Positions 32,951 through 58,626 of a DNA stretch of 64,000 bases are shown piece after piece (position 1 is the first letter of the stretch; each line of letters starts with the position of its first letter). Position numbers and translations under genes: made by a program. The notes below the pieces were generated by a model that did no database searches, was not told the DNA's origin, and was given only the letters and a program-made list of their open reading frames with translations. Origin of the DNA: Thermodesulfovibrionales bacterium (GTDB taxonomy: Bacteria; Nitrospirota; Thermodesulfovibrionia; Thermodesulfovibrionales; SM23-35); contig CAVQRT010000002.1 in NCBI GenBank assembly GCA_963715195.1, positions 1 through 64,000 of the forward strand, given 5' to 3'.

Positions 32951-33025
32951 AAATCCCTCCTAACCTCCCTTTACCAAAGGGAGGAATAATCCCCTCTTTG
33001 GTAAAGAGGGGTGAGGGGAGATTTT
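32951..33025. repeat. Double-hairpin palindromic intergenic repeat
   Basis: Hairpins CCTCCCTTT-ACC-AAAGGGAGG and CCCCTCTTT-GGT-AAAGAGGGG enclosed by AAATCCCTCC/GGGGAGATTT. Confidence 0.7.
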
Positions 33026-33087
33026 TTGATCAATAGCGATTCATATTTAAGACATCAATAACTTCAAACCGATGCGGAAGCCCAGAA

Positions 33088-34302: not shown

Positions 34303-34613
34303 ATCCATACCTCCTCGTATAGGTTTTATCCGATGTAACAATGCATCATGACGAATAATTGCTGATATTCTATCGATTTCATAGACTCCTTGCAATGTGC
34401 CCGAAAAAAGAAACATAAAATATTTGCATTTTTCTTTTTTTTTCTGTTATTATCACTTCCTAACAAAGCCTCATGTATTGGCAGCAGGTGCAGAATAACT
34501 CTCTCCCTTCCCAATACAGAGGCTCTTTTATACTGAATTTGGTTTTCTATGCAATCGAAATGTATTTGTCATAGAATCTATACCACTCCCCCCTATGCTG
34601 CCCGAAAACCTGT

Positions 34614-36536
34614 ATGCCTTCAGCAAAAACCCGTATGATTATCGAAGAAGTCATAGATTTCCTCAAAAAAATTCCCCCCTTCCAGTTCTTTGATGAAGCA
34701 AGCCTTAAAAACATTACGAGTGAAATATCTATGGATTTTTATCCGAAAGGAACAACTATCCAGTATCAGGGGGGGCCGGCTTCAGAGTATCTCCATATTA
34801 TCAAGAAAGGAGAAGTAAGGGTCTTCATAAAGAACGAAACTGACGAGGTGTTCGTTGATTACAGGGGAGAAGGTGATTTAATCGGCTATCTCCTTGTATT
34901 CGGTGGTGACAAAGCGAGGGCAACCGTCACTGCCATAGATGATACCATCTGCTATCTGATCAGAAGAGAGACAATACAGAATATTCTGAACGCCAATCCC
35001 AGCGTCAGGGAATTTTTTCATAAATCCTTTCTGACAAGATATCTTGACAGAACATTTAAGGAAATACAGAACAAGAATATAGCCTACGGAGGGGGCGATA
35101 AAATCCTCTTTACCATGCGCGTGGGAGAAATAGGATCGAAGGATGTGATAAAGGCATCAGAAAATATCACCATCCAGGAAGCTGCCGAGATTATGTCTAA
35201 TTACAGCATCAGCTCTCTAATCCTCGTTGATGCCCAGGACTTACCTTCCGGGATTATTACAGACAGAGACCTCAGGGACAAGGTTGTTTCAAAAGGAAGA
35301 GATTGTAACATTCCAGTAAAAGACATCATGAGCGTCCCTCGTGTCCGGGCAGATGTGAAGGATTATTGTTTCGAAGCAATCCTAAAGATGGTAAAACACA
35401 ACGTACATCATCTGCTCATCATGAAGGATGAAAAGTTAAAAGGAATCCTGACGAACCATGACCTTATGATGATTCAAGGCACTTCTCCCTTATCGATTGT
35501 TAGGGATATCGAAAGCCAGAATGTTATAGCCACACTGGTTCCTGTTTCTAAAAAAATTAATGATATGGTCGGGTTATTACTCAGTCAAGGTGCGAAAGCG
35601 AGCAGCATTACCCACATCATCAGTGAAATAAATGACAGACTTATAAGAAAAATACTCATGATAGCGGAAGAGCGCTTTGGAAAACCGCCAGTTCCTTATT
35701 GCTGGGTTGTTTTCGGGAGCGAGGGCCGTAAAGAGCAAACCTTTAAAACAGACCAGGATAACGCGCTCATTTATCATGATCCGACGGATCCTGAAATGGA
35801 AGAAGCGGCAAACAAATATTTCAGGGATTTCACGCTGTTTGCCCGAGATGGTTTGTTGAAATGCGGGTTCCCGTTATGCCCCGCAGATTTCATGGCGACG
35901 AATCCTATGTGGTGTCAACCTCTCCATATCTGGAGGAGTTATTTCACAAACTGGGTCTCTTCTCCGACCTCTGAAGCAGTATTGAACGCTGTCATATTCT
36001 CTGATCTCAGGGCAATCCATGGTGAAACGCGCCTTCTGGAATGGCTCAAAGATCACGCAATCGCCTTGCTCAGCGATAACCAGGTCTTCCTCGGTTATAT
36101 TGCCAACATGGCTATAAGAAATGTGCCCCCAATCGGCTTTCTGAAGACGCTCGTGGTCGAAAAGGGTGGCGAATACAAAGACCGGCTGGATCTCAAAACA
36201 AAGGGAATTGTTCCTTTGATTGACATCATTCGGCTTTTTGCATTAGAAAAAGGCTTCAGGGAGACTTCAACAGTCGAAAGAATCAACGCTCTGAAAGATA
36301 ACCATTCTATCGTCAGAGAATATGCGGATGAGCTTTTACACTCCTTCGAATTTATCATGTTACTAAAAATTCAAACTCAGTTTGAGCAATTGAGAGAAGG
36401 ACAGGATATCAACAATTTCATCCATTCTCATAAACTGAGCAATCTTGAAAAAAGGATAGCGAAAGAAACTTTTCAACTCATAGCTAAAATTCAGGACCTC
36501 ATCATTGAACAATATGATATCAGGCGTAATGACTAA
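34614..36536 (+). CDS. cNMP-CBS-CBS-DUF294 putative nucleotidyltransferase (copy 1)
   Basis: cNMP-like N-terminus, CBS GIITDRDL, GSEGRKEQ..TDQDN NTase motif, DUF294_C region. Confidence 0.9.
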   Translation: MPSAKTRMIIEEVIDFLKKIPPFQFFDEASLKNITSEISMDFYPKGTTIQYQGGPASEYLHIIKKGEVRVFIKNETDEVFVDYRGEGDLIGYLLVFGGDKARATVTAIDDTICYLIRRETIQNILNANPSVREFFHKSFLTRYLDRTFKEIQNKNIAYGGGDKILFTMRVGEIGSKDVIKASENITIQEAAEIMSNYSISSLILVDAQDLPSGIITDRDLRDKVVSKGRDCNIPVKDIMSVPRVRADVKDYCFEAILKMVKHNVHHLLIMKDEKLKGILTNHDLMMIQGTSPLSIVRDIESQNVIATLVPVSKKINDMVGLLLSQGAKASSITHIISEINDRLIRKILMIAEERFGKPPVPYCWVVFGSEGRKEQTFKTDQDNALIYHDPTDPEMEEAANKYFRDFTLFARDGLLKCGFPLCPADFMATNPMWCQPLHIWRSYFTNWVSSPTSEAVLNAVIFSDLRAIHGETRLLEWLKDHAIALLSDNQVFLGYIANMAIRNVPPIGFLKTLVVEKGGEYKDRLDLKTKGIVPLIDIIRLFALEKGFRETSTVERINALKDNHSIVREYADELLHSFEFIMLLKIQTQFEQLREGQDINNFIHSHKLSNLEKRIAKETFQLIAKIQDLIIEQYDIRRND

Positions 36537-36623
36537 TTGCATGAGCAGGTTCGGGACCTTTTTTTGATACATTATGTGTATTATTGAAAACAATGATTCA
36601 TCTGAGGAGAGGGCACTAATACC

Positions 36624-38537
36624 TTGGTAGCGGAAGACACCATTAGATTTCTCAGGAAAATACCCCCTTTTCAGTTCCTTGATGACAGTATTCTCCAGCG
36701 TGTAAGCAGGAACGCAAGAAAAACTGTCTATCCAAAGGATACCATTATTCTCCAGCAGGATGGACAGCCAAGTGAATACCTCCGCGTGATCAGGAAAGGC
36801 GGAGTAAAAGTATACAGGACCACTGAAACCGGAGAGGAAATCGTCATTGACTTTCGGGGCGAGGGGGATACATTCGGTTTTCTCTCCCTTATTGGCAAAG
36901 ATAAGGCAAAAGCAAATATTATTGCCACAGAGGATACTGTCTGTTACCTCTTGGATAAAGAAACGGTTAAAAGCCTTATCGAGACAAGTTCGATTTTTAC
37001 TGAATATTTCCTGAAATCTCATCTCGCAAAATACATTGACAAGTCATTCGGTGGAAAAGAGAATAAATCTCTTCTTTTTGGATCCGCTGACAGCATTCTA
37101 TTCAAGACTCGTGTGGATGATATCGGGCTGAAGGACATCATCACAGTAGAGGAGTTCAGGACAATAAAGGAGTCTGCAAAGATTATGTCTCAGAATAAGA
37201 TCAGCTCCCTGATCATCATAAACGGTGAACAACAGCCTTCAGGAATCGTTACCGACAGAGACCTGAGGGAAAAAGTCGTTGCTGCCGGCAGGGATGTGTC
37301 AGAACCGATACGTAATATCATGACCAGTCCACTCATACGGGTTGATACCTCAGATTTCTGTTTCGAGGCGGTCATGAAAATGATCAAAAATAATATCCAC
37401 CATATTGTTGTGATGGAAAAAGGGTTTCTGAAGGGCATCCTCACAAATCACGACATTCATGGTTCTACAGGGCACCTCCCCGTTATCTGTTGTCAGGGAT
37501 ATTGAAGCGCAGAATACCATTGAAGGGCTCATCCCGGAGTCCGGGAATATCAATAAAATTATTGCTCTCCTTTTGAAGGAGGGGGCAAAAGCGAGCAACA
37601 TCACCGGTATCATCACAGAAATCAACGACAGGCTCCTCAAAAAAATTCTCGCAATTTCAGAGAATAAATTCGGACCCCCTCCCGTTCCGTATTGCTGGAT
37701 TGTATTCGGCAGTGAAGGCAGAAAAGAACAGACGTATAGAACAGACCAGGATAATGCCATCATTTACATCTGATCCGGTCACAGAAGACCAAAAAGAAGC
37801 TGCGAGGGAGTACTTTCATAAATTTTCAGAATTCGCCAGGGATGCCTTGTTGCAATGCGGGTTCCCTTTATGTCATGGAAATTACATGGCATCTAATCCA
37901 ACATGGCGACAGCCGCTGAACGTCTGGAAGGACTATTTTTCTCAATGGATATCCACTCCGACACCCGATGCGGTACTCGCTTCCTGCATCCTTTTTGACT
38001 TCAGGCCGGTATATGGGGATTCCTACCCTTGCTGAGCATCTCAGAGAACACCTTCAGACCAAGTTGAAAAATCAGGATATGTTCCTAAAACTCATGGCCC
38101 AGCTTACCATAAATCTACGCCCGCCCATAGGTTTGTTCAAGGGTTTTATTGTGGAAAAAACCGGGAAACACAAAAACAAGCTTAACCTCAAATTCACCTG
38201 TCTTGCTCCTCTCGTCAATATCGTGCGACTTTTCAGTCTCGAAACCTATATCCCTGAGACATCTACACTCGACAGACTCCACGCGTTGAAAGCAATACAC
38301 GCGATTGTTGGGGAATTCGGTGAGGAACTGGAGCATGCTTTTGAGTTTCTTACCATGCTTAAAATCCGTCATCAGCATGAACAGATACAACAGGGACAAG
38401 AACCGGATAACTTCATTAACCCGAAAGCCTTGAGCAATTTCGAACAGAAGGTATTCAAGGAATCCTGTCAGGCAATCTTTAAAATACAGGACATGATCAA
38501 TAAAAAGTATAATCCGGGAACAGGATCGATCTTATAA
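36624..38537 (+). CDS. cNMP-CBS-CBS-DUF294 putative nucleotidyltransferase (copy 2), interrupted by three +1 frameshifts
   Basis: Colinear paralog of copy 1 across four ORF pieces. Extra bases near 37457, 37768 and 38021. GSEGRKEQ..TDQDN is intact. Confidence 0.85.
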
Positions 38538-38538
38538 A

Positions 38539-39273
38539 ATGAGCAAACTCTTCACAGATTACAGAAATAAATTCTTTCAGGGTGCGATGAAGAAACAGGA
38601 TTTACCCCCTTCTGTCCTGAAGCATCTGTCAGTTACTGAACATATCAGGAGAGACGTCGACCCACGAGAGGCAGTCTACGTCGTATTTGATACAGAGCTT
38701 ACCGGTCTGAATCCCAAAAAAGATTCAATTGTTTCCATCGGAGCCCTGAAAGTATTCGGAACAAAAATCGATATCGGCAATCCATATTACAGAATTGTTG
38801 AACCGCAGTCCAAGCTGACCGGTCAGAGCGTTGTCATTCATGGCATCACACCATCAGAGGCTTCAGAATGTCCCAAAATTGATAAACTCCTCCCTGAGTT
38901 CCTGGACTTTTGTGGAAGCGGAATTATCGTTGGTCATTTTGTATCTATTGATCTCGCCTTTCTCAATAAAGAGATGACAAGGCTGTTCGGGTTGACGCTT
39001 CAGAATCCTTCTGTTGACACATGCGTGCTCTATCAATGGGTGAGAAAACGGGAAGAAAATATCTGTGCCTTCCACGATGGCATTAAGGAAAATGTTGATT
39101 TAATGACCCTTGCGCAGAAATATTCCATACCGGTTTTTGACGCACACAATGCCCTGAATGATGCCTTTATCACTGCGCAGCTGCTTCAACGGCTCATCGC
39201 AAACCTTCATCGCTTCAATATCAACACTGTCGAGGACCTCCTCAGAATTGGGAAGCCTCGCAAGAAAAAATAG
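38539..39273 (+). CDS. DEDDh 3'-5' exonuclease (DnaQ-like)
   Basis: FDTELTG, GHFVSIDL, HNALNDA. Confidence 0.92.
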   Translation: MSKLFTDYRNKFFQGAMKKQDLPPSVLKHLSVTEHIRRDVDPREAVYVVFDTELTGLNPKKDSIVSIGALKVFGTKIDIGNPYYRIVEPQSKLTGQSVVIHGITPSEASECPKIDKLLPEFLDFCGSGIIVGHFVSIDLAFLNKEMTRLFGLTLQNPSVDTCVLYQWVRKREENICAFHDGIKENVDLMTLAQKYSIPVFDAHNALNDAFITAQLLQRLIANLHRFNINTVEDLLRIGKPRKKK

Positions 39274-39355
39274 GGAAAAGGAGGTGGTAGGATAAGGGAA
39301 AAACAGGGGAACGCGTCCTCTTTGAGGATGCTGATCTTTTTCGGAGGAGGCATAT

Positions 39356-39616
39356 ATGGTAGCAAAAGAAACATATGAGGCTTACTGGAAACAGAATCTG
39401 ACCTACATTGTGATTCTTCTTTCCATTTGGTTTGCCGTATCATATCTATGCGGGATCATGCTGGCTGACCAGCTCGATAACATCAGATTTTTCGGATTTC
39501 CGCTCGGTTTCTGGTTTGCAAACCAGGGGTCTGAGGTAACATTTGTGATCCTCATCGCAGTATATGTGAAGTTAATGAATGCACTCGATATCAAATACGA
39601 CGTCCATGAAAAATGA
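39356..39616 (+). CDS. DUF4212 small membrane subunit of a solute symporter
   Basis: YW..NL, GFPLGFWFANQGS, two TM helices, immediately upstream of the SSS gene. Confidence 0.88.
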   Translation: MVAKETYEAYWKQNLTYIVILLSIWFAVSYLCGIMLADQLDNIRFFGFPLGFWFANQGSEVTFVILIAVYVKLMNALDIKYDVHEK

Positions 39617-39689
39617 GCAGGTAAGCAGGACTGAGTGATCCGCTGATGCAGATACGGATCATAATCTTAATGATTGAAAGGAGAAAAAC

Positions 39690-41474
39690 ATGAGTATAAT
39701 AACGTGGACGTGGATAATCGTTGGTGCAACATTTGCTTTATATATAGGGGTAGCATTCTGGGCTAAGGCAAGATCGACCGGCGAATTCTATGTCGCAGCG
39801 AAACAGGTCCACCCGGTACTTAATGGAATGGCCACCGGTGCAGACTGGATGTCTGCGGCCTCATTCATTTCAATGGCAGGGTTGATATCCTTCCTCGGGA
39901 GGGACGGCGCCATGTATCTCATGGGCTGGACAGGCGGCTATGTCCTACTTGCCATGCTCCTGGCACCCTATCTCAGAAAATACGGGAAATACACCGTGCC
40001 GATGTTCGTCGGTGAACGGTACTATTCACAGGCCGCCCGCGTTGTCGCCGTCATCTGTGCCATTTTTGTCTCGTTCACCTATGTTGCGGGACAGATGCGC
40101 GGTGTCGGTGTTGTCTTCTCACGTTTCCTGGAAGTCCCCATTAATACAGGCGTCCTTATCGGCATGGGAATCGTGTTCTTCTATGCCGTGCTGGGAGGAA
40201 TGAAGGGAATCACCTACACGCAGGTCGCCCAATACTGTGTTTTGATAACCGCATACCTCATCCCGGCTATTTTTATATCAATAATGCTTACCGGGAACCC
40301 GATTCCTCAGTTCGGCTACGGGAGCACGTTAAGTGAAAACGGCATGCAACTTTTGAATACAAGCGGTGGGTATCTCCTGGATAAACTCAACGAGGTCCAG
40401 AAAGACCTGGGCTTTCCCGCATATACCGGGCGGGGCTCAAAGAGTATGATCGACGTGTTTATGATTACTTTCGCACTTATGGTAGGAACAGCTGGCCTTC
40501 CCCACATCATCATTCGCTTCTTCACAACGCCCACCATCAGAGGGGCGCGTGCCTCAGCAGGATGGGCATTGCTCTTCATCGCTATTTTGTATACAACAGC
40601 CCCGGCAGTTGCCTCCTTTGCCAGACTCAACATGATTCACACCCTCAACAACAAGGCCTACGCTGAAGCCCCAAGCTGGTTCAAGAACTGGGAAAAAACA
40701 GGACTTGTCGCCTGGAAAGATAAGAATGGTGACGGCATGATACAGTATGCAAAGGGCGACGCATTTAAGGGGAAAATAGCTTTTGAAACAGGTGCCGTCG
40801 GTCCCTATGGCGAAAGGGTCGTGAAAACACCCATAAATGAGGAAAGCACCAGTGAGCTTTATATTGACAGGGACATCATGGTTCTGGCCAATCCTGAAAT
40901 TGCCAAGCTTCCTGCGTGGGTAGTAGCTTTAGTAGCAGCGGGAGGACTTGCCGCAGCACTCTCCACTGCTGCCGGACTTCTTCTGGTCATCGCTTCTGCC
41001 TTCTCCCACGACCTGATAAAGAATGTTATCGCCCCGAATACGTCTGAGAAGGGAGAGCTCATAGCGGCAAGGATCGCTGCTGGATTTGCGGTGACGGTTG
41101 CTGGTTATTTCGGCATCCATCCGCCGGGATTTGTTGCCCAAGTCGTTGCCTTCGCGTTCGGACTTGCAGCGTCATCGTTCTTCCCTATTATTATCATGGG
41201 AGTCTTCTGGAAAAGGACTACCAAGGAAGGAGCAATTCTGGGAATGCTCAGCGGTATCATCTTTACCGCCGCTTATATCATCTATTTCAAATTTGTCAAT
41301 CCTGACATGAATAAGGCTCAATACTGGCTCTGGGGAATTTCTCCTGAAGGTATCGGAACAATCGGGATGCTCATCAATTTTGTCGTTACGTTCGTAGTAT
41401 CCAAAATAACAAAGGAGCCTCCGAAGGCGGTTCAGGATATGGTTGCAAGCCTGCGCTATCCGAGAGAGATTTAA
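39690..41474 (+). CDS. Sodium/cation:solute symporter, ActP-like (acetate/carboxylate)
   Basis: NGMATGADWMSAASF, GTAGLPH...RFF, LAAALST; adjacent to acs. Confidence 0.92.
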   Translation: MSIITWTWIIVGATFALYIGVAFWAKARSTGEFYVAAKQVHPVLNGMATGADWMSAASFISMAGLISFLGRDGAMYLMGWTGGYVLLAMLLAPYLRKYGKYTVPMFVGERYYSQAARVVAVICAIFVSFTYVAGQMRGVGVVFSRFLEVPINTGVLIGMGIVFFYAVLGGMKGITYTQVAQYCVLITAYLIPAIFISIMLTGNPIPQFGYGSTLSENGMQLLNTSGGYLLDKLNEVQKDLGFPAYTGRGSKSMIDVFMITFALMVGTAGLPHIIIRFFTTPTIRGARASAGWALLFIAILYTTAPAVASFARLNMIHTLNNKAYAEAPSWFKNWEKTGLVAWKDKNGDGMIQYAKGDAFKGKIAFETGAVGPYGERVVKTPINEESTSELYIDRDIMVLANPEIAKLPAWVVALVAAGGLAAALSTAAGLLLVIASAFSHDLIKNVIAPNTSEKGELIAARIAAGFAVTVAGYFGIHPPGFVAQVVAFAFGLAASSFFPIIIMGVFWKRTTKEGAILGMLSGIIFTAAYIIYFKFVNPDMNKAQYWLWGISPEGIGTIGMLINFVVTFVVSKITKEPPKAVQDMVASLRYPREI

Positions 41475-41482
41475 TCCTTTCC

Positions 41483-41515
41483 GACAGGGAGGATCTTTTT
41501 CAGGTCCTCCCTGTC
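41483..41515 (+). terminator. Stem-loop between the symporter and acs
   Basis: GACAGGGAGGA/TCCTCCCTGTC 11-bp stem with no clear U tract. Confidence 0.55.
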
Positions 41516-41659
41516 AGGAGAAAAGATGAAAACATGTATAATAGAGACGCCTCTTGAAGAAATCATGAAGACAAGCAGGATAAGCCACGGTGAGACAGTA
41601 TTGCAAATTTCACCTGTTGATTCTTCTCACCAAACTCAGGAAAGGAGGAGTTACCGATA

Positions 41660-43631
41660 ATGTCCAACGAGAGTATTGACGTATTGATGGCGGAAAAGAG
41701 GACGTTCCCTCCGTCGAAGGAATTCAGCAAAAAGGCGCATATCAAAAACATCAAAGAGTATGAAGAACTGTACAAAAAGTCTGTTGAAAATCCTGACGAA
41801 TTCTGGGCAGAAATGGCAGAAAAGCACCTGACCTGGTACAAGAAATGGGATAAGGTTTCAGATTGGGACTTTCATAAGCCATATATCAAATTTTTTATTG
41901 GGGGAAAATTGAATGCCTGCTACAACTGCCTTGACAGGTTTATAAATACCCCGACCAGGAACAAAGCAGCCATTATCTGGGAATCGGATGATGGAACATA
42001 TAAAACCTACACGTATCAGCAGTTATACCGCGAAGTGAGCCGATTCGCCAATGTCCTGAAAAAACATGGCGTGAAGAAAGGAGACAGGGTAACCATCTAT
42101 CTCCCCATGATTCCGGAACTCCCGATCTCGATGCTTGCCTGTGCCCGCATCGGTGCAATCCACAGCGTCGTTTTCGGAGGGTTCAGTGCAACAGCACTGA
42201 AAGACAGGATACAGGACTGCAAATCAAACCTCCTTATTACTGCGGACAAAGGCGCCAGGGGCGGACGGTTTGTCCCTCTCAAGGCAAATGCCGACCAAGC
42301 CCTACAGGAATGTCCTACTGTTCAGAAAACTATCGTCGTAAAACGGGTTGGGAGTGTGGATATGGAACCCAACAGGGATCTGTGGTGGCATGATGAGATG
42401 AATGACCCTGACATATCAGACTACTGTGAACCCGAACAAATGGATGCCGAGGATCCCCTGTTCATCCTGTATACGTCAGGTTCCACAGGGAAACCAAAGG
42501 GAGTCCTTCACACCGTTGGCGGATATATGCTGTATACAAACCTCACATTCAAATGGATATTTGATTACCGTGATGAAGATATCCACTTCTGCACTGCGGA
42601 CATCGGTTGGGTCACCGGGCATAGCTATATTCTCTATGGTCCTTTGAGCAGCGGGGCAACCAGCCTGATGTTTGAAGGTATCCCGACATATCCCGATCCA
42701 AGCAGGTTCTGGAAAATTGTGGACAAATTCGGGGTCAACATTTTTTATACAGCACCGACTGTAATCAGGGCCCTTATGAGAGAGGGTGAGAGCTGGGTTA
42801 ACAAACACGATCTTTCCTCACTGAGATTGCTCGGGACAGTCGGAGAACCGATCAACCCCGAGGCATGGATGTGGTACCATACCCATGTTGGGAAAACGAA
42901 ACTACCGATTGTTGATACATGGTGGCAGACTGAGACAGGCGGTATATTAATTACACCTTTGCCCGGAGCCATGACAACAAAGCCGGGATCAGCCAGCAAA
43001 CCATTTCCAGGAGTCGTTCCGAAAGTTTTAAAAGAAGACGGCTCCCCTGCCGGCGCTCATGAAGGCGGGTACCTTGTCATCGAAAAACCATGGCCGGGAA
43101 TGCTCCGCGGCACTTACGGAGACCCGGAGAATAAACGCATCAAGGAAGTGTATTTTCACGCGCTTTCCCGGGAAATACTTCACCGGTGATGGTGCACGGG
43201 TCGATGAAGACAACGATTATTGGCTTATGGGAAGAATTGACGATGTTATCAATGTTTCCGGCCACAGGATCGGAACAGCTGAAGTCGAGTCTGCCCTCGT
43301 AAGCCATGAGGCAGTAGCTGAAGCTGCAACAGTCGGCTACCCGCATGATATTAAAGGTGAAGGCATTTATGTCTACGTGACTCTGAAGGAGGGCTTCGAA
43401 CCCACCCCTGAACTCACCAAGATACTCGTCGGTCACGTGAGGCAGGTGATTGGCCCGATAGCAACCCCTGATAAAATACAGTTTACCCCGGGTTTACCAA
43501 AAACGAGGAGTGGTAAGATTATGCGAAGGATACTCCGGAAAATAGCACGGGGAGATACGGAAGACCTCGGCGATACATCCACCCTTGCAGATCCTTCCGT
43601 GGTCAATGAGATCCTGAAGGGGAAAGTGTAA
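41660..43631 (+). CDS. acs: Acetyl-CoA synthetase (one +1 frameshift near 43155)
   Basis: [31 protein letters not shown]. Split over two frames at the TATTTTCACG run. Confidence 0.95.
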
Positions 43632-43730
43632 TAACGTCGGACAACAGAATGATATGTTCCCAAAAGGGTAGAGTAAAATCTACCCTTTTTGTTTTTCCCG
43701 CGGTAAAATAAACCGCGTAAGGAGAATTGT

Positions 43731-46416
43731 GTGTCGGTAAAAAACCTTGAATATTTTTTCAATCCCCGTAGAATCGCTGTCATCGGTGCATGTGAAGACA
43801 GATACTCGATAGGCTACACAGTTTTCAAAAATCTCTTTGGCAAAGGGTTCAAAGGTTCTGTGTATCCTGTCAACCCCCGTGTCGAGGCAGTACAGGGGGT
43901 AGAGGCATATCCCAAAATATCCGACATTCAGCGCGAAATCGATCTGGCCATTGTGGCAGTCCCCCCTCAAGAGATTCCCCAGGTGCTTGATGAATGCGGC
44001 ATCAAAGGAGTAAAGGGGGTCATAATCCTCTGTTTTGATTTTAAGAAGAGGGTTGAAAATTCTCAGGACCTCCAGGGAAAAATTAAAGATGCCTCTGACA
44101 AATATGGATTCAGGGTTCTGGGTCCTGATTCACTTGGATTTATCAAGCCGAGCATGAATCTCAACGCAAGCATCTATCCTCAAATACCTCCGAAGGGGAA
44201 TATCGCTTTCATAGCGCAAAGCACTACCCTCTCATCCGCACTTCTGGACTGGGCGTCAAGCAAGAACATCGGTTTCAGCTACTTCATTTCTATCGGAACG
44301 AAAATTGATATCAAACTCGCAGACCTCATTGACTTCCTTGGGGTTGATCCGGAGACACGGGCTATTATTCTCTACATAGAATCCATAAAAAACGGGCGTA
44401 AATTCATAACTGCTGTCCGGAGTTTTGCATCCAGCAAGCCGATCATGATAATTAAATCCGGGAAATTCGATGTCTCTGCCCATGTTGCACTCACGCATTC
44501 AGGGTACATGGCGGGAGAAGACAAGGTTTACGATGCAGCCTTTGAACGTGCAGGAGCCATACGGGTTGATGAAACCCTTGATCTCTTCTATCTTGCCGAG
44601 TCCCTCTCCAAACAGCGCCGTCCCAAGGGTAACCATCTGGCAATTATCACGAATTCCGGTGGCTCCAGCCATCATAGCTGTCGACACCCTGCTTAAACTG
44701 AACGGGGAATTGGCAATGTTAAGTAAAGAAACTGAGGAATCCCTCCGCACGCACTTCACCTATCTTAGGTTTATTCAGAATCCCGTCGATCTGTTCGTTG
44801 AGGCATCTCCAAAGGATTATGATGTCGCATTGAGAGGTTGCCTTAAGGATAAGAATGTCGACGGCGTTCTCGTTATCCATACTCCCTCTTACCTGCCGAA
44901 CTCAAGGGAAATTGCAGAGGCAGTAGTTGAGGCAGCAAAAGCGTATCCCTATAAACCGATCTTCACCATCTGGATGGGCGGAGAGCAGGTGATTGCCTCA
45001 AGGGAATTTCTCAGCAGCCACGGGATACCGACTTTTGTATCCACAGAACAATCAGTCAAGAGCTTCATGTATATGTACCGGTATGATTACAACCTCCGTC
45101 TCCTTCTCGAAACACCGGAGGTGATTCTGAAGGATTTTGAACCCGATGAGTACCGCGCCGAGGAGATAATCAGAAAGGCATCGGAAGAGAAAAGGCTTCT
45201 CCTGAATCTCAATGAGGTAAAAGATGTTCTCCTCTCGTACGGGATACCGGTCGTTCCCACAAAGGTAGTTCAGACTGCTGAAGAAGCAATCGAGATCGCT
45301 GATTTCATCGAATATCCTGTAGTTTTAAAAATTGATTCAAGGAAAATATTTCATAAAACCGAACTGGGGGGTGTCTGGTTAAACCTCAGGGACCAGAATG
45401 CAATCAGAGAAGCCTTTAAGCACCTTCAGGAGCTTGCTGTGATGGCGAAAGATCCAGATGCACAGGTTATCATTCAGCCGATGGTATCACATAATGGTTA
45501 TGAACTCGTGATCGGCGCCAAAAAAGACCCGACGTTCGGGTCGGTAATTGTCTTTGGTACCGGCGGGGTCCTTCTTGATGTCGTCGAGGATTATGCCATA
45601 GGACTTCCGCCCCTCAATCAGACATTGGCAAGGCGCATGATGAACAAGACGAAGATTTATAACCATCTCCGCCGTCAGGTAGGTTTCGAAAGCACGCTCC
45701 GCTATATTGAGGAAGTCCTTGTTCGGTTCTCTCATCTGATCATTCATTTTCCCCATATTAAGGAGATCGATATCAATCCCTTCTTTGTCTCAAATGAGGA
45801 GAGCTTTGCGTTGGATGCCAACATCCTGCTCGAGGCGGATGTCCTTGAAGGTTTCGTTCCTGTGAGAGGTGACTTCTGTCCTCCTCACCTTTCCATCTGT
45901 CCCTACCCCGATCAATACATTGACGTTTTCAAGTTGCGGGATGGCCCTGCTGCCGTTATCAGGCCCATCCGTCCTGAGGATGAACCTCTCATAAAAGAAT
46001 TGCTGAAGAGGTCTTCCGAACAGACACTCATGATGAGGTTTTTTAGGAAAGTATCTGACATGACTCATGAGCAACTTACGCGGTACTGTCACGTTGATTA
46101 TGACCGGGAGATCTCCTTCGTGGCTATCCTCACCGACACCGGCGGGGACCGGATAGTCGGCGAGGTTCGGATGAGCAGACTGCCCGATCAGGAGAATGCT
46201 GAAATGGCTGTTGTAGTTGGGGACCCCTGGCAGGGAAAGGGCATTGGGAAGGCCCTCTGTATGCACTGTTTGAAGATTGCGAAGGAGATCGGGATTAAAA
46301 AAATGTGGATGGAAATTCTGCAGGTAAATTCAAGGATGCTTCACCGGGCAGAAACCATGGGCTTTACGAAAGTTTCATCTGATGAGGAGTCGTTAAAAGT
46401 TCTGCTTGATTTGTAA
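43731..46416 (+). CDS. Pat-type protein lysine acetyltransferase (NDP-forming acyl-CoA ligase-like + C-terminal GNAT), one +1 frameshift near 44664
   Basis: CoA-binding N-terminus, TNSGG-PA, NPVD, ATP-grasp-like region, IRPIRPED...WQGKGIG GNAT. Confidence 0.9.
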
Positions 46417-46432
46417 TATTTGCAGAAAGGGA

Positions 46433-46461
46433 TTGAAATTTTTTAAAAAGATCGCTAAACT
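46433..46461 (+). promoter_or_regulatory. sigma70-like promoter for the porin
   Basis: TTGAAA-N17-TAAACT. Confidence 0.45.
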
Positions 46462-46498
46462 CAATAGAATTTAAAATTTTTCATCACAAGGAGGGGTT

Positions 46499-47761
46499 AT
46501 GAAGATTTTATTTCGAGGGTTTCTGGCATGTATTTTCATCTTTCTGCTGTCAGGTGCCGTCTTCGCTCAGGCAACGGTGACTGATATGCAGAGTCAGCTC
46601 GAAATGCTGATGAAACAGGTGGATGCGCAAAAGAAGCAGATCGAGTCACTGCAAAATACCATCAACGAAATGCAAAGCAAACAGGCTGTACCTGCAGCAC
46701 CTGCCGCAGCTCCGGAAGTAAAAGTAAGTTCCAAATACGATATCAAGATCTACGGGAAAATAAAGTTTGACACTATTTATGATACCAATAACATGGGGAG
46801 AGATGAATTTATTACGTTTGTTCCCCAAAACGCTGACGGTAAAGACAAAGCAACATTTAATGTTCGTGACACTCGTTTGGGTATTGCCGTTACCGGTCCG
46901 TCGATGAATGGCTGGACAGCTAGTGGCCGTTTTGAATCCGATTTTTATGGTAGCGACCCGACAAGTAATGGTGGCCTAAGAATTCGTCTCGCCTACATAG
47001 ATTTCAAAAAAGATGGCACCGGAATCAGGGTTGGACAGGACTGGAACCAAATTGCTGCACTGAATCCGACAACTGTCGACTTTGCGATCATGGGGTACAA
47101 TGGTAACCTTTGGAATAGGGTCCCACAGGTAACCTTACGGCAGAATTTCGGAAGCGGGCTTGACGGTCTCCTCACTGTCTATCGTTACCGTTGGAATGAT
47201 GATGACGCCGGCTCAAAAGTTGATACACAGATTCATATGCCTTGGATTGGCGGAAAAGTCGCCTATGCAGGCAAACTCATTGATCCCGACAAAAATGCCT
47301 ACATTGCACTTGATGGTGCAGTCAGAAATGGTCAAGCCGGGGATAATGACGTGACTCCTTATGTTGCTGCACTCGAGTTGAAACTGCCCATTATGTTCGT
47401 CGAGTTAACCGGTGAAGCATACATGGGGCAGGGTCTCGGCTCTGAGTATTTCCATACTGGTTCCGGCGGGGCTTTCAGTGCAAAAGGGAATGCGGTATTG
47501 ACCCGCGGCGGTTTTCTCCAGGCCAGTGTAAAACCGATCAAAGATATCACTGTGAATGTTGGATATGGCTTGGATGATCCTAAGAACGCTGATGCAGGAA
47601 GCGATTTCTTCCAGAAGAGCAACTATGCTTTTGGTAATGTGTTTATACAGCTCTTTAATGACATCTCAGCAGGCATGGAAGTAGCCCATGTGAATACTGA
47701 TTGGGCAACCGGCGATGAGCACGGCACCCGCTATCAGGCTTCATTGATGTATAACTGGTAA
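46499..47761 (+). CDS. DcaP-like outer-membrane porin
   Basis: Signal peptide, N-terminal coiled coil, YGKIKFD, TRLG, ESDF, RIRLAY, GQDW, RVPQ, terminal aromatic residue. Confidence 0.8.
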   Translation: MKILFRGFLACIFIFLLSGAVFAQATVTDMQSQLEMLMKQVDAQKKQIESLQNTINEMQSKQAVPAAPAAAPEVKVSSKYDIKIYGKIKFDTIYDTNNMGRDEFITFVPQNADGKDKATFNVRDTRLGIAVTGPSMNGWTASGRFESDFYGSDPTSNGGLRIRLAYIDFKKDGTGIRVGQDWNQIAALNPTTVDFAIMGYNGNLWNRVPQVTLRQNFGSGLDGLLTVYRYRWNDDDAGSKVDTQIHMPWIGGKVAYAGKLIDPDKNAYIALDGAVRNGQAGDNDVTPYVAALELKLPIMFVELTGEAYMGQGLGSEYFHTGSGGAFSAKGNAVLTRGGFLQASVKPIKDITVNVGYGLDDPKNADAGSDFFQKSNYAFGNVFIQLFNDISAGMEVAHVNTDWATGDEHGTRYQASLMYNW

Positions 47762-47777
47762 GAACTTTAATATACAG

Positions 47778-47803
47778 CAAGGGGATGGGAAGCCATCCCC
47801 TTG
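47778..47803. terminator. Hairpin between the convergent porin and ftsK
   Basis: CAAGGGGATGG/CCATCCCCTTG. Confidence 0.7.
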
Positions 47804-49873
47804 TCATCTCCTTCTCCTGAGAAAATCTCTCGGTTTTCCGGCGGCCCTTGGCGGACCTACCAGACCATCCTCTTCCATTAATTCCATGATGCGTGCAGCC
47901 CTGTTGTACCCTATCTTGAGTCGCCTCTGGATAAAGGATATGGAGACCTCGCCGGTTGTCTCCCCGATCTCAATCGCTTTCTGATACATTTCGTCTCGTT
48001 CCGCATATTTTTCATCATCACCCGGTTCGTCCAGGTTCTGAATGCTCTCCATAATCCTGTAATCAGGCCTCCCCTGTGTTTTTATAAACTCGGTAACGCC
48101 CTGTATCTCCTCTTCGGTAATCAGCGCTCCATGAACGCGGATGATGCGTGCACCGGGCAGCATCAAAAGCATATCTCCTTTCCCGAGGAGCTGCTCTGCG
48201 CCATGGGTATCGAGGATTGTGCGGGAATCCACTTTTGAAGATACCTGGAAAGAAAGTCTCGCGGGAAAGTTCGCCTTGATAATTCCGGTAATGACATCAA
48301 CAGAAGGTCTCTGAGTGGCCAAAATAAGGTGTATGCCTGCCGCACGTCCCATCTGTGCAAGCCTTGTTATGGAATCTTCCACATCCGTCGGCGCAGTAAA
48401 CATAAGGTCAGCGAGTTCATCAATAATAATGACGAGATAGGGCAGATGCTCCTCATCCTTTGCCTGCAGGTTGAAGCTCTCTATGTTCCGGGAGCCCTTT
48501 TCTGCAAGAAACCGGTAGCGCCTCTCCATTTCGAAAACCATCTTCCTCAATGCCTCTGCTGATTCTTTCGGGTTCGTAATAACGGGAGAAATAAGATGGG
48601 GGATTTCCTGATAGGCGGAAAGTTCGAGCAGCTTCGGATCGACCATGAGCATCTTCACCTCAGCAGGAGTTGCCTTATACAACATGCTCATCACCATGGA
48701 ATTTATGGATACACTCTTTCCTGACCCGGTTGCACCGGCAACGAGCAGGTGCGGCATTTTGGAGAGATCTGCAACGACCGGGGCACCTGAAATGTCTTTG
48801 CCGAGTCCGAGGGTAAGTTTCGATTTGCTCTTCTGAAACCCTTCTGAAGAGAGTATCTCTCTCAGAGAAACGGTTTCCCGTTGCTTGTTGGGGACTTCTA
48901 TGCCGAGAACAGCTCTGCCCGGGATAGCTGATACCCGTATGCTTTGCGCTTTGAGCGCGAGGGCAAGATCATCAGACAGGGAAACAATCTTGTTGATCTT
49001 GACCCCGGGAGCCGGTTCGAATTCATACATCGTGATAATGGGACCGGGATTTACCTTGGTGATTTTTCCTTCTACGCCGAAATTATACAGCTTCTGCTCA
49101 ATGAGTGATGAATCAGCGATAAGTTCTTCATGAGATGGCTTGACAACCTCAGAAACGGAGTGCCGCAGGATTTCGAGAGAGGGGAATTCGTAGTCACCTT
49201 CCTTTCTCGGCAGCATGGGCGCAGCAGGTTCAGCAACAGGGTAAGCTACAGGCGCAAACTCGGATTCGGTAATAAGTATCTCCTCCTGTTCTTCTGGTTC
49301 CGCTTCTTCCCTGAACTCTTTTCGTTCAACCTGCCGGGTCCTCTTTCTGACCGCAATGGCAGTCACTGACACAGGGCTTATCAATACGATCGAAGACAGA
49401 AGAGCCGAGAGTGAAAAGATATAGGCGCCGGGCAGGGATACCAGTTGAATGGCAAGATATGCCAGCGCCTTGCCCGCAAGGCCACCAATTCCGTCGGGAT
49501 ACTTCTCCAGCCCGATACCAAAGGTGTGAGAGAGGAGGGAGAGAAGAAGAGACGTAGATATGGTGCATAAGATCCCCCCGAGGAGATATATCCGGTGTCG
49601 CCCCAGCCCCAGCAGACGTTTCACCCCGAATGCAATAACGAAAACAGGGATGATGAACGCAGCAAGCCCGAGAAGAATGATGAGAAAACCCGATAATTGC
49701 GCCCCGACAACGCCCCCCAGATTCCGGACAGGTTCGGGCGGTTCTGTCGTCCTGAAAAAAAGAACGGAGTCCCTCAGCGAGTGGGTAAAGAGAATCATCA
49801 GCAGATAGAAACTGCCCATGAGCGAGACAACGCCGGCAATCTCTTCTTTTACCCGTCTTATTCTTTCCACCAT
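47804..49873 (-). CDS. ftsK: DNA translocase FtsK
   Basis: 4TM N-terminus, AGATGSGKS, IIDELAD, ATQRPS, QRRLKIGYNRAAR gamma domain. Start placed at MVERI. Confidence 0.95.
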   Translation of the reverse strand: MVERIRRVKEEIAGVVSLMGSFYLLMILFTHSLRDSVLFFRTTEPPEPVRNLGGVVGAQLSGFLIILLGLAAFIIPVFVIAFGVKRLLGLGRHRIYLLGGILCTISTSLLLSLLSHTFGIGLEKYPDGIGGLAGKALAYLAIQLVSLPGAYIFSLSALLSSIVLISPVSVTAIAVRKRTRQVERKEFREEAEPEEQEEILITESEFAPVAYPVAEPAAPMLPRKEGDYEFPSLEILRHSVSEVVKPSHEELIADSSLIEQKLYNFGVEGKITKVNPGPIITMYEFEPAPGVKINKIVSLSDDLALALKAQSIRVSAIPGRAVLGIEVPNKQRETVSLREILSSEGFQKSKSKLTLGLGKDISGAPVVADLSKMPHLLVAGATGSGKSVSINSMVMSMLYKATPAEVKMLMVDPKLLELSAYQEIPHLISPVITNPKESAEALRKMVFEMERRYRFLAEKGSRNIESFNLQAKDEEHLPYLVIIIDELADLMFTAPTDVEDSITRLAQMGRAAGIHLILATQRPSVDVITGIIKANFPARLSFQVSSKVDSRTILDTHGAEQLLGKGDMLLMLPGARIIRVHGALITEEEIQGVTEFIKTQGRPDYRIMESIQNLDEPGDDEKYAERDEMYQKAIEIGETTGEVSISFIQRRLKIGYNRAARIMELMEEDGLVGPPRAAGKPRDFLRRRR

Positions 49874-57420: not shown

Positions 57421-57422
57421 GT

Positions 57423-58517: not shown

Positions 58518-58626
58518 TATCCACTCCGTTCTATTCTATGCTTTGACGTATTGTCACATTTCCCGCTCAGACTTTGAGCCGTTTATGACTTCCGTGCACC
58601 CAGAGATGATCCGTGATATCCATTCG

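Follow-up and report, generated by a model that had tools for sequence, protein, structure and literature searches.

What does a sensor-type nucleotidyltransferase (NTase) followed by an exonuclease do at the head of a locus for the uptake and activation of what is probably acetate? This question is raised by a gene cluster in the window, i.e., the stretch of 64,000 nucleotides that we analysed. We hold with high confidence the joint reading that the cluster serves the uptake and activation of a monocarboxylate, probably acetate, in a Thermodesulfovibrionales-like member of the Nitrospirota, that it carries a sensor-NTase/exonuclease module, that several of its genes are interrupted by breaks peculiar to this assembly, and that the first of its two NTases is a remnant. 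The locus is an ordinary copy of a widespread organic-acid uptake cluster and its host is a sediment Nitrospirota.

Profile searches with Pfam and NCBIfam recovered all eight gene families that a sequence-only reading had listed here, co-oriented on the + strand between 34614 and 47761. Gene content and order in that reading stood, but the broken reading frames of NTase 2, acs, and pat had escaped it. The motifs that it quoted were likewise found in the translations: GSEGRKEQ..TDQD in both NTases, PKTRSGK in Acs, DIKYDVHE in the DUF4212 protein, and the RYP tail of the symporter. The head of the locus is a conserved COG2905-type module, in which a cNMP/CBS-sensing NTase of the GlnE/DrrA fold precedes a DEDDh exonuclease. 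NTase 1 (34614..36536) is intact at 640 aa and combines a cNMP-binding domain (PF00027, 56.6 bits), a CBS pair (PF00571, 60.6 bits), DUF294 (PF03445, 167.2 bits), and DUF294_C (PF10335, 126.4 bits), all above their cut-offs. NTase 2 (36624..38537) has the same architecture, its pieces jointly holding the same four Pfam domains. The two proteins are about 46% identical, and NTase 2 shares 60-68% identity with the intact NTase of the related locus L071.

The exonuclease gene (38539..39273; 244 aa) starts 1 nt past the NTase 2 stop and encodes a DnaQ/RNase T-like 3'-5' exonuclease of the DEDDh type (PF00929, 86.1 bits against a cut-off of 24), the single copy of its type in the window's genome. 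The DEDDh residues noticed earlier are conserved across 62 aligned exonucleases; in an alignment of 49 sequences, D52, D139, H204, and D209 (L071 numbering) are invariant and E54 is present in at least 90%. Among solved structures, the PolC exonuclease domain 2p1j is nearest to the protein in sequence (E 4e-22). We rejected an equivalog identity with PRK09145, PRK09146, or DnaQ, since the protein scores below the cut-offs of PRK09145 (131.9 against 189 bits), PRK09146 (124.2 against 266), and the DnaQ equivalog models; only the broad TIGR00573 epsilon-family domain model is passed (89.3 against 71.5). A consensus scan predicted a terminator-like hairpin with a T run 3' of this gene (39313..39331, + strand) and further terminator-like hairpins 3' of the symporter gene (41474-41494) and 3' of acs (43662-43689). 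The same scan predicted 24 such sites, compared to 12.7 ± 3.1 in shuffled sequences.

Downstream lies a two-subunit transporter. The small subunit (DUF4212/TIGR03647; 39356..39616; 86 aa) scores 110 bits against a cut-off of 26.05, and its gene is separated by 73 nt from that of a VC_2705-family SSS symporter (39690..41474; 594 aa), for which TIGR03648 gives 858.5 bits against 320.75. The ActP and MctC models score under their cut-offs on this symporter. Judged by these profiles it is probably a monocarboxylate importer, and the neighbouring acs and pat genes suggest that its substrate may be acetate. The acs gene (41660..43631) encodes an AMP-forming acetyl-CoA synthetase in two pieces; the N-terminal piece alone reaches 747.4 bits with TIGR02188 (cut-off 724.95), and the acetylation-site motif PKTRSGK sits in the C-terminal piece. 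The next gene (43731..46416) encodes a Pat-type protein lysine acetyltransferase, whose CoA_binding_2, Succ_CoA_lig, ATP-grasp_5, and GNAT (Acetyltransf_1) domains are spread over two pieces, so that both the site motif and the acetyltransferase that had been pointed out are present. Pat-type acetyltransferases acetylate the Acs lysine within this motif. The row ends with a putative DcaP-like outer-membrane channel (46499..47761; 420 aa). PF19577 matches it at 29 bits (cut-off 27) over profile positions 22-184 of 410 only, and its nearest clusters in the Atlas are DcaP, at 0.99. Orthologues of this porin lie 3' of pat in L002 and L089, the one in L002 giving no PF19577 match at E ≤ 0.001.

The breaks in three of these genes amount to five single-base insertions. 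NTase 2 is divided into four overlapping ORFs by three frameshifts (37456, 37770, and 38025), acs into two by one inserted base near 43153-43157, and pat into two at 44663. We compared these sites with Logan contigs from four metagenome runs of four studies, mostly at least 99% alike. One base was absent at each of the three NTase 2 sites in contigs of all four runs; for acs, the base was absent at 43153 in three runs and at 43157 in the fourth; for pat, absence at 44663 was listed for run X1, and the pieces listed for the other three runs do not span that site. Removal of the extra bases gives single open frames of 636 (NTase 2), 656 (acs), and 894 (pat) codons, as judged by length, and the pat orthologue in L002 is intact (898 aa) with the same domains. 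Because near-identical contigs lack the extra bases, the five breaks are most likely assembly errors, insertions peculiar to the window's assembly, and the natural population probably has intact NTase 2, acs, and pat genes, with their interruption confined to this assembly. Could the frameshifts instead be real, in a strain that is losing these three genes from a decaying locus? A cluster of substitutions (37578 to 39729) separates the window from all four runs, which share them, and marks it there as a separate strain; long homopolymers are absent from all five sites, and one cassette has already been deleted in the lineage (see below). Decay nevertheless seems quite unlikely to us, since all five lesions are of one kind (+1 insertions, with no stops and no deletions) and in each of the four runs, including the best-matching one, which is possibly the source sample, the extra base is absent from four or more of the five sites. 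Further genes in the window also look split, e.g., a PilS-like kinase at 54597-56196, pointing to a general error habit of the assembly.

Both NTases carry the Pol-beta-type G-S...D-x-D motif (GSEGRKEQ..TDQDN). This motif and many more residues are invariant in alignments of 36 and 49 homologues; in the set of 36, G368, S369, and D382 are invariant and D380 is present in at least 90%. All family-invariant residues are present in NTase 1 (alignment A1). AF2 models of NTase 1 had a pLDDT of 78 for the whole protein and 90.1 for the catalytic part. When the catalytic-domain model (345 residues) was searched against 48,161 representative chains, three matches stood out: the GlnE N-domain 1v4a (Z 24.7, 297 residues aligned, rmsd 2.7), DrrA (6yx5_B; Z 23.6, 297 residues), and the GlnE adenylylation domain 3k7d_B (Z 23.4, 296 residues). 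Other DrrA entries followed at Z 12.6 and 11.7, and everything else was at or below 12.6, with the best unrelated fold, a HEPN domain, at 9.5 and aminoglycoside NTases at or below 7.3. The whole-protein model returned the same top three. Identity to the solved GlnE and DrrA structures is 12-13%, and no GlnE or GlnD model is among the NCBIfam matches of NTase 1 at E ≤ 0.001. As modelled, the DUF294 NTases form a separate family that is predicted to share the protein-adenylyltransferase fold of GlnE and DrrA, and the kinship with GlnD/GlnE that had been put forward is upheld for GlnE/DrrA. Solved members of this fold modify protein tyrosines.

How tightly this NTase is bound to its neighbours was assessed in 136 related loci, with counts taken from sets of 76, of 40 evenly drawn, and of 20 from a second phylum. 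Across them, NTase and exonuclease form a cassette that accompanies a single SSS symporter. In the set of 76, the exonuclease lies directly 3' of the NTase in 55 of the 68 loci with enough downstream DNA; 51 of 59 have an SSS symporter no more than 4 kb away, and 42 of 47 have Acs no more than 9 kb away. The gap between NTase and exonuclease is at most 32 nt in 47 of 51 intact pairs, 26 of which overlap (starts being chosen by a length rule). NTase, exonuclease, and symporter are all held by 34 of the 40 evenly drawn loci, and in the second phylum the NTase adjoins an exonuclease in 12 of 20. One phylum supplied most of the loci, and these are related to one another, which means that the counts cannot be treated as independent. 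The association goes far beyond what chance would give, in agreement with the earlier suggestion that this neighbourhood is known from other bacteria. The genes are also matched in number: L081, L085, L086, L108, and L116, the only five loci in which two SSS genes are complete, each have two NTases, two exonucleases, and one Acs. A DUF294 gene stands without an adjoining esterase in 12 of 68 loci (L055 set aside), and also in L098, L106, and L113. In receptor-type relatives, a calcineurin-like metallophosphoesterase takes the place of the exonuclease. L137 encodes a sCache-PAS-CBS-DUF294 receptor, then an overlapping Metallophos protein, then an SSS gene; with L134 and L138, three of the five receptor-type loci have this arrangement.

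The same comparison suggests how the tandem NTases arose. NTase 1 has no downstream exonuclease of its own and is in this sense an orphan. Locus L116 reads NT1-EXO-DUF485-ActP-NT2-EXO-DUF4212-SSS-ACS-PAT, and the full first cassette is visible there and in L089. L071 retains a 106-residue remnant of the ActP C-terminus between its two NTases (66% identity, E 2e-44), and DUF485 is absent from the window's genome. NTase 1 clusters with the NTases of the ActP-type cassettes L001-L003, and NTase 2 with those of L071 and L067, which precede EXO-DUF4212-SSS; NTase phylogeny thus tracks transporter type, even inside the single genome of the window. From gene order and phylogeny, NTase 1 appears to be the survivor of a first cassette, NTase-EXO-DUF485-ActP, whose last three genes were deleted, and NTase 2-EXO-DUF4212-SSS appears to be a second cassette that is complete. 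The proposal of a two-layer switch is weakened accordingly: Pat is present as described, but it is only an occasional neighbour of the module (7 of 76 and 6 of 40 loci), and the two NTases are no designed pair.

Building on the fold and motifs, on the one-to-one-to-one linkage of the genes, and on the swap of partners, we infer a writer/eraser switch on the transporter, a plausible but tentative reading to which we give somewhat less than even credence. Each NTase-phosphoesterase pair would be a dedicated switch of its own symporter. Upon binding a cyclic nucleotide or adenylate, the NTase would transfer an NMP from an NTP to a protein hydroxyl in the transporter system, the acceptor perhaps being the permease or its small subunit, or else a protein that regulates them, and this addition would dampen uptake. 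The exonuclease would then hydrolyse the protein-NMP phosphodiester and free 5'-NMP, so that uptake would be restored; such a cleavage would be chemically the same as that at a nucleic-acid 3' end. We know of no DEDDh enzyme that takes a nucleotide off a protein. The exchange of the exonuclease for a calcineurin-like esterase fits a generic phosphodiester-removing partner. Two tyrosines that had been named as targets are not conserved: Y81 in DIKYDVHE of the DUF4212 protein is found in 18 of 22 sequences, with F in three, and Y590 in the RYP tail of the symporter in nine of 19, with I in nine. Acs, also named, is unlikely to be the target, since the NTase/exonuclease pair is counted per symporter and not per Acs.

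Literature searches returned genetics and speculation only, and no biochemistry, for any member of the module. In the portions of the Pseudomonas reports that we consulted, deletion of the exonuclease PP_0353, yjcH, or actP-I is described as impairing growth of P. alloputida on pyruvate, whereas deletion of the NTase PP_0354 is not. Such phenotypes, in which loss of PP_0353 resembles loss of the transporter and loss of PP_0354 does not, are those predicted for an inhibiting writer and an activating eraser. On propionate, the same portions describe lower growth upon deletion of either the NTase or the exonuclease, but not upon deletion of the transporters; effects in the same direction indicate that the pair are not simply antagonists acting on ActP alone. 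On acetate, deletions in P. fluorescens and P. putida are described there as having negligible or no effect.

These propionate phenotypes are easier to explain if both enzymes act in one pathway, for instance if the product of the NTase is a small molecule containing a nucleotide (a linear or cyclic oligonucleotide, a dinucleoside polyphosphate, a nucleotidylated metabolite, or the like) that is degraded by the exonuclease, or in other lineages by the metallophosphoesterase, and that tunes the symporter or its expression. The NTase has nucleotide-binding sensor domains, and both swap partners come from families in which the known members hydrolyse nucleotide phosphodiesters: oligoribonuclease is a DEDDh enzyme, and among the calcineurin-like esterases are hydrolases of cNMP and of Ap4A. 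The fold search also showed distant structural kinship (Z 6-7) with aminoglycoside NTases, enzymes that modify small molecules. Proteins are the substrates of all three close relatives (Z 23-25), however, and small-molecule NTases score far lower; moreover, the cassette encodes no receptor for such a signal except the cNMP and CBS domains of the NTase itself. We judge a small-molecule signal unlikely. The remaining reading, in which transporter expression requires the exonuclease, an enzyme that would trim or degrade an RNA (e.g., the mRNA of the symporter or some small RNA), while the NTase senses metabolites and controls or tails that RNA, strikes us as very improbable. Degradation of mRNA is speculated upon in the consulted portion of the P. 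putida work, and the exonuclease both retains all catalytic residues and has the PolC and DnaQ proofreading domains as its best solved sequence relatives. Against this, a calcineurin-like esterase is able to replace the exonuclease, the fold of the NTase is unlike that of RNA-tailing enzymes, none of which is among the best 50 of the 48,161 chains, and no Rfam family or conserved RNA was found in 33000-48500, where the best match (E 0.7) was spurious.

The proposed switch of the transporter by protein nucleotidylation has its nearest counterparts in Pseudomonas, where both the module and the idea are already in print. As the consulted portions of those reports describe it, PP_0354/PP_0353 of P. 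putida (alloputida) KT2440, Pflu5625 of P. fluorescens SBW25, and PA3233/PA3232 within PA3232-PA3235 of P. aeruginosa likewise represent a cNMP-CBS-nucleotidyltransferase gene with an RNase_T-type exonuclease gene behind it; the pair is linked to acs and to genes for the uptake of acetate or monocarboxylates, and a regulatory role through nucleotidylation of proteins has been put forward for it. The pair of P. putida and P. fluorescens is described as lying apart from actP and acs and as joined to them by the CrbS/R (MxtR/ErdR) regulon, whereas in the window all genes form one co-oriented row and CrbS/R is not evident. The window differs further in its extra orphan NTase, its Pat and porin genes, and its phylum, Nitrospirota. 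In Shewanella and P. stutzeri, according to the part of the preprint consulted, clusters contain the same two-subunit DUF4212 and VC_2705-family symporter; fitness data indicate that DUF4212 is needed for the transporter, and the symporter is cofit with a neighbour labelled 'COG2905 (RNAse T domain protein)', a label that fits either member of the NTase/exonuclease pair (Price et al., bioRxiv 10.1101/072470). The substrates reported there are D,L-lactate and D-alanine, whereas acetate is suggested for the window.

The Pat/CobB and AcuABC systems share with the window a Pat-type gene beside acs and the conserved lysine motif, but the locus has no deacetylase gene and Pat is not a constant neighbour of the module. 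In structure, the two CBS domains of the NTase are similar to AcuB, itself a CBS protein (Z about 16), a likeness generic to the domain. DrrA (SidM) of Legionella, whose adenylyltransferase domain is among the three best fold matches, is paired with SidD; the AMP-tyrosine that DrrA makes is taken off by an unrelated metal-dependent esterase. In contrast to the window's NTase, which would be a cytoplasmic housekeeping-type sensor, DrrA is a secreted effector that acts on host Rab1, and the two are about 12% identical. GlnE with glutamine synthetase, and GlnD with PII (GlnK) and AmtB, are linked to the window by the same GlnE fold (Z 23-25). GlnD/GlnE systems nucleotidylate tyrosines reversibly upon sensing metabolites. 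The locus lacks PII, GS, HD, and ACT domains, and its sensors are cNMP-binding and CBS domains. Unlike GlnD, whose removal activity resides in a separate metal-dependent phosphohydrolase domain, its candidate remover is a DEDDh exonuclease, or in relatives a calcineurin-like esterase. Modified PII gates a membrane transporter, and the logic of the switch proposed here would resemble that of GlnD/GlnK/AmtB.

Translations and profile matches resolve positions 34614–47761 of the plus strand into eight co-oriented genes, running from NTase 1 to a porin-like protein. The 640-aa product of NTase 1 combines cNMP_binding, two CBS, DUF294, and DUF294_C domains, and the second gene, NTase 2, encodes a protein of the same architecture with approximately 46% identity to it. 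The third gene, which starts 1 nt past the NTase 2 stop, encodes a 244-aa DEDDh exonuclease of the RNase_T/DnaQ type. There follow genes for an 86-aa DUF4212/TIGR03647 protein, a 594-aa SSS symporter of the VC_2705 family (TIGR03648, 858 bits), acetyl-CoA synthetase (acs), a Pat-type protein (CoA-binding/ATP-grasp/GNAT), and a 420-aa DcaP-like outer-membrane protein; the last matches the DcaP model at 29 bits against a cut-off of 27 and is grouped with DcaP clusters in the protein atlas. The sequence-only reading had the gene families and their order right, and every motif it quoted is found in the translations of the window, but it missed breaks in NTase 2, acs, and pat. An Rfam scan of 33000–48500 gave a single spurious match (E 0.7), and a promoter scan gave no signal (25 sites versus 22.5 ± 3.7 in shuffled sequences). 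The locus is a real, well-conserved gene cluster: a representative, from a new phylum, of one already known, in a family whose chemistry is unsolved. The two features peculiar to the window, i.e., its two NTases and its broken genes, have mundane explanations.

The genome of the window (2.81 Mb, 36 contigs, 97.8% complete) contains no DUF294 genes other than NTase 1 and NTase 2, a single copy of this type of exonuclease, and no DUF485 gene. The closest homologues of NTase 1 are labeled, for example, Thermodesulfovibrionales or Nitrospirota MAG. Elsewhere in the window, the minus strand encodes a 558-aa multihaem cytochrome c with a cytochrome b561-type partner (5443–7826) and the plus strand a RACo-type corrinoid-protein activase (18138–20009), both in keeping with an anaerobic sediment lifestyle. 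Type IV pilus/T2SS-like genes occupy 56779–62316 of the minus strand, among them two tandem MshEN-domain T2SSE ATPases (614 and 602 aa), one T2SSE ATPase, and a short, possibly truncated T2SSF protein (213 aa).

In the window, NTase 2 is spread over four overlapping frames, and acs and pat over two each. DNA of the locus is found in public marine-sediment and estuary metagenome runs, and we compared the locus with contigs from four such runs, each of a separate study and mostly at least 99% alike. Relative to the window, all four runs are one base short at each of 37456, 37770, and 38025; three are also one base short at 43153, and the fourth at 43157. A missing base at 44663 is listed for run X1 only, the other three runs having no listed piece that spans the site. 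These positions are exactly those of the five frame changes, and without the extra bases NTase 2, acs, and pat become single frames of 636, 656, and 894 codons, respectively. The breaks are very probably errors of the window's assembly, since all five are +1 insertions, with no stops and no deletions, and since a further gene of the window likewise looks split: a PilS-like sensor kinase on the minus strand (54597–56196), whose 6TM_PilS (55633–56196) and PAS-HisKA-HATPase (54597–55799) parts lie in overlapping ORFs, probably through another single-base assembly error. A sigma-54 response regulator (53243–54646) adjoins this kinase. The alternative, real decay in the window's strain, draws support from a shared substitution cluster at 37578–39729, at which the window differs from all four runs. 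The runs agree with one another across this cluster, which runs through the 3' part of NTase 2 and then the exonuclease and DUF4212 genes and reflects either a strain difference or a lower-quality stretch of the assembly. Under the error and decay readings alike, the natural population has NTase 2, acs, and pat whole. A genome-wide count of stop-to-stop overlaps as a sign of frameshifts returned 548 pairs, mostly ordinary neighboring genes, and was uninformative. Annotators should be warned that single-base insertions in this assembly imitate pseudogenes. In the RNA run X20, a fraction of 0.10 of the sampled words was present.

The co-occurrence check shows that this neighborhood is conserved. 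In a first set of 76 loci, from a scan of species-representative genomes, the exonuclease gene lies directly 3' of the NTase gene in 55 of the 68 loci with at least 800 nt downstream; in one of the 13 misses (L055) the NTase is split and the exonuclease in fact follows. An SSS symporter occurs within 4 kb in 51 of 59 loci, 16 of these with DUF4212; symporters without it are mostly ActP-type and accompanied by a small DUF485 protein, an arrangement verified in locus L002. Acs is found within 9 kb in 42 of 47 loci, and Pat anywhere in the locus in 7 of 76. The NTase and exonuclease genes are separated by at most 32 nt in 47 of 51 intact pairs and overlap in 26, distances that are approximate since starts were assigned by a length rule. 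A second, evenly drawn set of 40 loci, reached via the genome holding locus L036, was dropped as an independent phylum, since its gene orders and similarity scores match the first set and place it in the same group of organisms. Within it, NTase, exonuclease, and symporter occur together in 34 loci. The remaining loci comprise an NTase with ActP and no exonuclease (L095), an NTase–exonuclease pair alone (L115), solitary NTases next to a short receiver-like ORF (L098, L106, L113), and, in L111, one very long fused frame. Two complete symporter genes occur in five loci (L081, L085, L086, L108, L116), each of which also has two NTases and two exonucleases, with one Acs.

An independent sample was taken around genome G002, from a second phylum, to which the genome with locus L067 belongs. 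A strong DUF294 gene is present in 41 of 151 genomes of that phylum, and the exonuclease adjoins it in 12 of the 20 loci fetched. The counts per symporter, the single Acs, and the repetition of the pairing in this second phylum show that the inherited unit is NTase, exonuclease, small subunit, and symporter, with Acs and Pat as neighbors outside it. The NTase–exonuclease pair is widespread and adjoins genes for the transport of acetate, pyruvate, propionate, and lactate. A word-limited, and so weak, search of the exonuclease against longer proteins for NTase–exonuclease fusions gave three matches, none with DUF294 (one PAS-RNase_T and two PolC-like).

Loci L098, L106, and L113, like L074 and L057 of the first set, represent a DUF294 subfamily with no exonuclease or symporter nearby; in the first three, the receiver-like ORF preceding the NTase scores 131–147 bits to a response-regulator query. 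The L111 frame (G092:C139:1495-6558) is open for approximately 1687 codons and combines a DUF294 match with sigma-54-regulator-like sequence, which points to a large fusion protein or to neighboring genes read through as one. PF03445 matches 126 of 201 genomes of the group reached via the L036 genome, the weakest matches falling in frames of 900–1000 aa. Such weak matches of the DUF294 model (E 1e-4 to 1e-6, frames of approximately 900–1000 aa) recur in many genomes, E. coli included, and probably represent GlnD or GlnE, an assignment that would agree with the kinship of fold.

Five loci in the phylum of the L067 genome encode receptor-type NTase proteins of approximately 980 aa; the two scanned with Pfam (L137 and L136) contain sCache_2/dCache, PAS, CBS, DUF294, and DUF294_C domains. 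In three of the five (L134, L137, L138), a metallophosphoesterase gene lies 3' of the NTase. At L137 it encodes a 250-aa calcineurin-like enzyme and overlaps the NTase stop, followed by genes for an SSS symporter, an sCache histidine kinase, and a sigma-54 regulator. With the receptor-type NTase on one side and the sCache_2 histidine kinase on the other (the latter with its regulator within L137:7722-10568), a single symporter is flanked by two different sCache receptors.

The presence of two NTases in the window can be traced by comparison with related loci. In a midpoint-rooted FastTree tree of N-terminal halves, considered without its support values, NTase 1 clusters with its counterparts from L001–L003, which head ActP-type cassettes, and NTase 2 with those of L071 and L067, which head DUF4212-type cassettes. 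The close relative L116 (NTase 1 score 1140) contains both cassettes in the order NT1-EXO-DUF485-ActP-NT2-EXO-DUF4212-SSS-ACS-PAT, and L089 reads NT1-EXO-DUF485-ActP-NT2-EXO-ACS-PAT-porin. L071 has the gene order of the window and holds, between its NTase genes, a 107-aa ORF (L071:1519-1842) with 66% identity over 106 residues to the C-terminus of the L116 ActP (E 2e-44); by this similarity, the ORF is an ActP remnant, the deletion scar of the first cassette. No such remnant is detectable in the 87-nt spacer between NTase 1 and NTase 2 of the window. Together, the tree grouping, the L116 and L089 gene orders, and the L071 remnant indicate that the window locus descends from a two-cassette locus whose first cassette lost its exonuclease, DUF485, and ActP genes. 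NTase 1 is hence an orphan, although its reading frame is whole and none of the invariant residues is missing. In ten other loci (L015, L018, L019, L021, L032, L040, L051, L053, L112, L117), a sigma-54-dependent response regulator of approximately 448 aa (Response_reg, Sigma54_activat, HTH_8) stands between an upstream DUF294 NTase and an NTase-EXO-DUF4212-SSS-ACS cassette; it was identified with Pfam in L021, L053, and L032 and elsewhere by ORF size or phmmer score against the L021 protein. This protein may control transcription of the cassette or serve the upstream NTase as a partner.

A PDB sequence search with NTase 1 matched its cNMP and CBS parts only, so fold searches were needed. We modeled the catalytic part (residues 296–640) with AlphaFold (48-row alignment, pLDDT 90.1) and compared the model with 48,161 representative solved chains. 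The best match was the GlnE N-terminal domain (Z 24.7, 297 residues aligned, rmsd 2.7), with DrrA (Z 23.6) second and the adenylylation domain of GlnE (Z 23.4) third; two more DrrA entries preceded a HEPN domain (Z 9.5) and aminoglycoside NTases (Z at most 7.3). A model of the whole protein gave the same top three. The relation of DUF294 to the GlnD/GlnE fold, cited as established in the sequence-only reading, is therefore upheld in the predicted structure (Z 23.4–24.7 versus 9.5 for the next fold): the modeled fold is unambiguously that of protein adenylyltransferases. No GlnE or GlnD family model matched NTase 1 in an NCBIfam search, which places the family outside GlnE/GlnD proper, as a predicted sister of the protein tyrosine adenylyltransferases. 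The exonuclease keeps all DEDDh residues and is nearest by sequence to the PolC and DnaQ proofreading domains. Complex prediction for the intact orthologous pair of L071, NTase (645 aa) and exonuclease (244 aa), with alignments A2 and A3, gave a score of 0.11 against a mark of 0.32 and is neutral on binding.

Published genetics connect the pair with carboxylate uptake. Price et al. (bioRxiv 10.1101/072470) found DUF4212 to be required for its symporter (lactate, D-alanine) and the symporter to be cofit with a neighboring "COG2905 (RNAse T domain protein)", i.e., the NTase or exonuclease of the pair, which they guessed to be needed for expression. Sepulveda and Lupas (PMC5715377) placed Pflu5625 in the CrbS/R acetate regulon, described its deletion phenotype as negligible, and stated that it is predicted to act on proteins via nucleotidylation. 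In Pseudomonas, the pair is among the genes under strongest acetate-regulon control (10.64898/2026.09.07.749794), and PA3232–PA3235 rise approximately 16-fold on propionate (PMC9765439). Henriquez et al. (PMC9927547) described pp_0354-pp_0353 as an operon, with no acetate defect and with a pyruvate defect in the exonuclease mutant. In the 2026 preprint (10.64898/2026.09.07.749794), deletion of either the NTase or the exonuclease reduced growth on propionate, and exonuclease, yjcH, and actP-I mutants had pyruvate defects, with little or none for the NTase mutant; protein modification was again raised as an idea. Our literature search found no biochemistry of the pair.

The best-supported reading, although one we hold tentatively and at somewhat less than even odds, is a switch specific to each transporter, in which the sensor NTase would attach a nucleotide to one of the symporter system's proteins, to be removed as 5'-NMP by the esterase, whether exonuclease or metallophosphoesterase. 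It is favored by the fold, the 1:1:1 gene count, the close or overlapping NTase and exonuclease genes, the exchange of partner, and the pyruvate phenotypes of the published mutants, in which the strain without the "eraser" resembles the transporter mutants, unlike the strain without the "writer". It is weakened by the propionate phenotypes, which run in the same direction, by DUF294 genes that have no esterase, by the variability of the candidate tyrosines, and by the lack of biochemistry, of a known target, and, to our knowledge, of any precedent for a DEDDh de-nucleotidylase. The tyrosines put forward from the sequence alone do not hold as conserved sites: of 22 DUF4212 sequences, 18 have Y81 and 3 have F there, and of 19 symporters, 9 have Y590 and 9 have I, with R589 and P591 invariant on either side. 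The proposal of Pat as a second layer of the switch is weak, this layer being ordinary Acs control with no tie to the NTase module in the data.

No RNA-tailing or cGAS-type enzyme is among the best 50 of the 48,161 chains matched to the catalytic model, and the calcineurin-like esterase in the exonuclease's place suggests that the partner's job is hydrolysis of an NTase-made phosphodiester, not nucleic-acid trimming as such. A small-molecule or second-messenger version of the NTase–esterase pair seems unlikely, and an RNA-level role, akin to the mRNA decay speculated on by Henriquez et al. (PMC9927547), more unlikely still. The per-transporter switch in its full form, i.e., reversible protein nucleotidylation, one switch per SSS carboxylate symporter, that gates uptake by cyclic-nucleotide/adenylate state, with the DEDDh exonuclease as de-nucleotidylase and the orphan NTase supplying the surviving switch with a second sensory signal, is possible but doubtful.

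The window reveals no new kind of system, and the chemistry of the family stays interesting and is now more sharply testable. Comparison across loci sharpens the question, in that the pair is counted per symporter and not per Acs, the exonuclease is swappable for a calcineurin-like esterase, and the predicted fold is that of a protein adenylyltransferase. If the switch is real, it would entail a protein de-nucleotidylase activity, never described for the DnaQ-type DEDDh fold. The proposed gating of symporter uptake by an NTase and a phosphoesterase would resemble the gating of AmtB by GlnD/GlnK.
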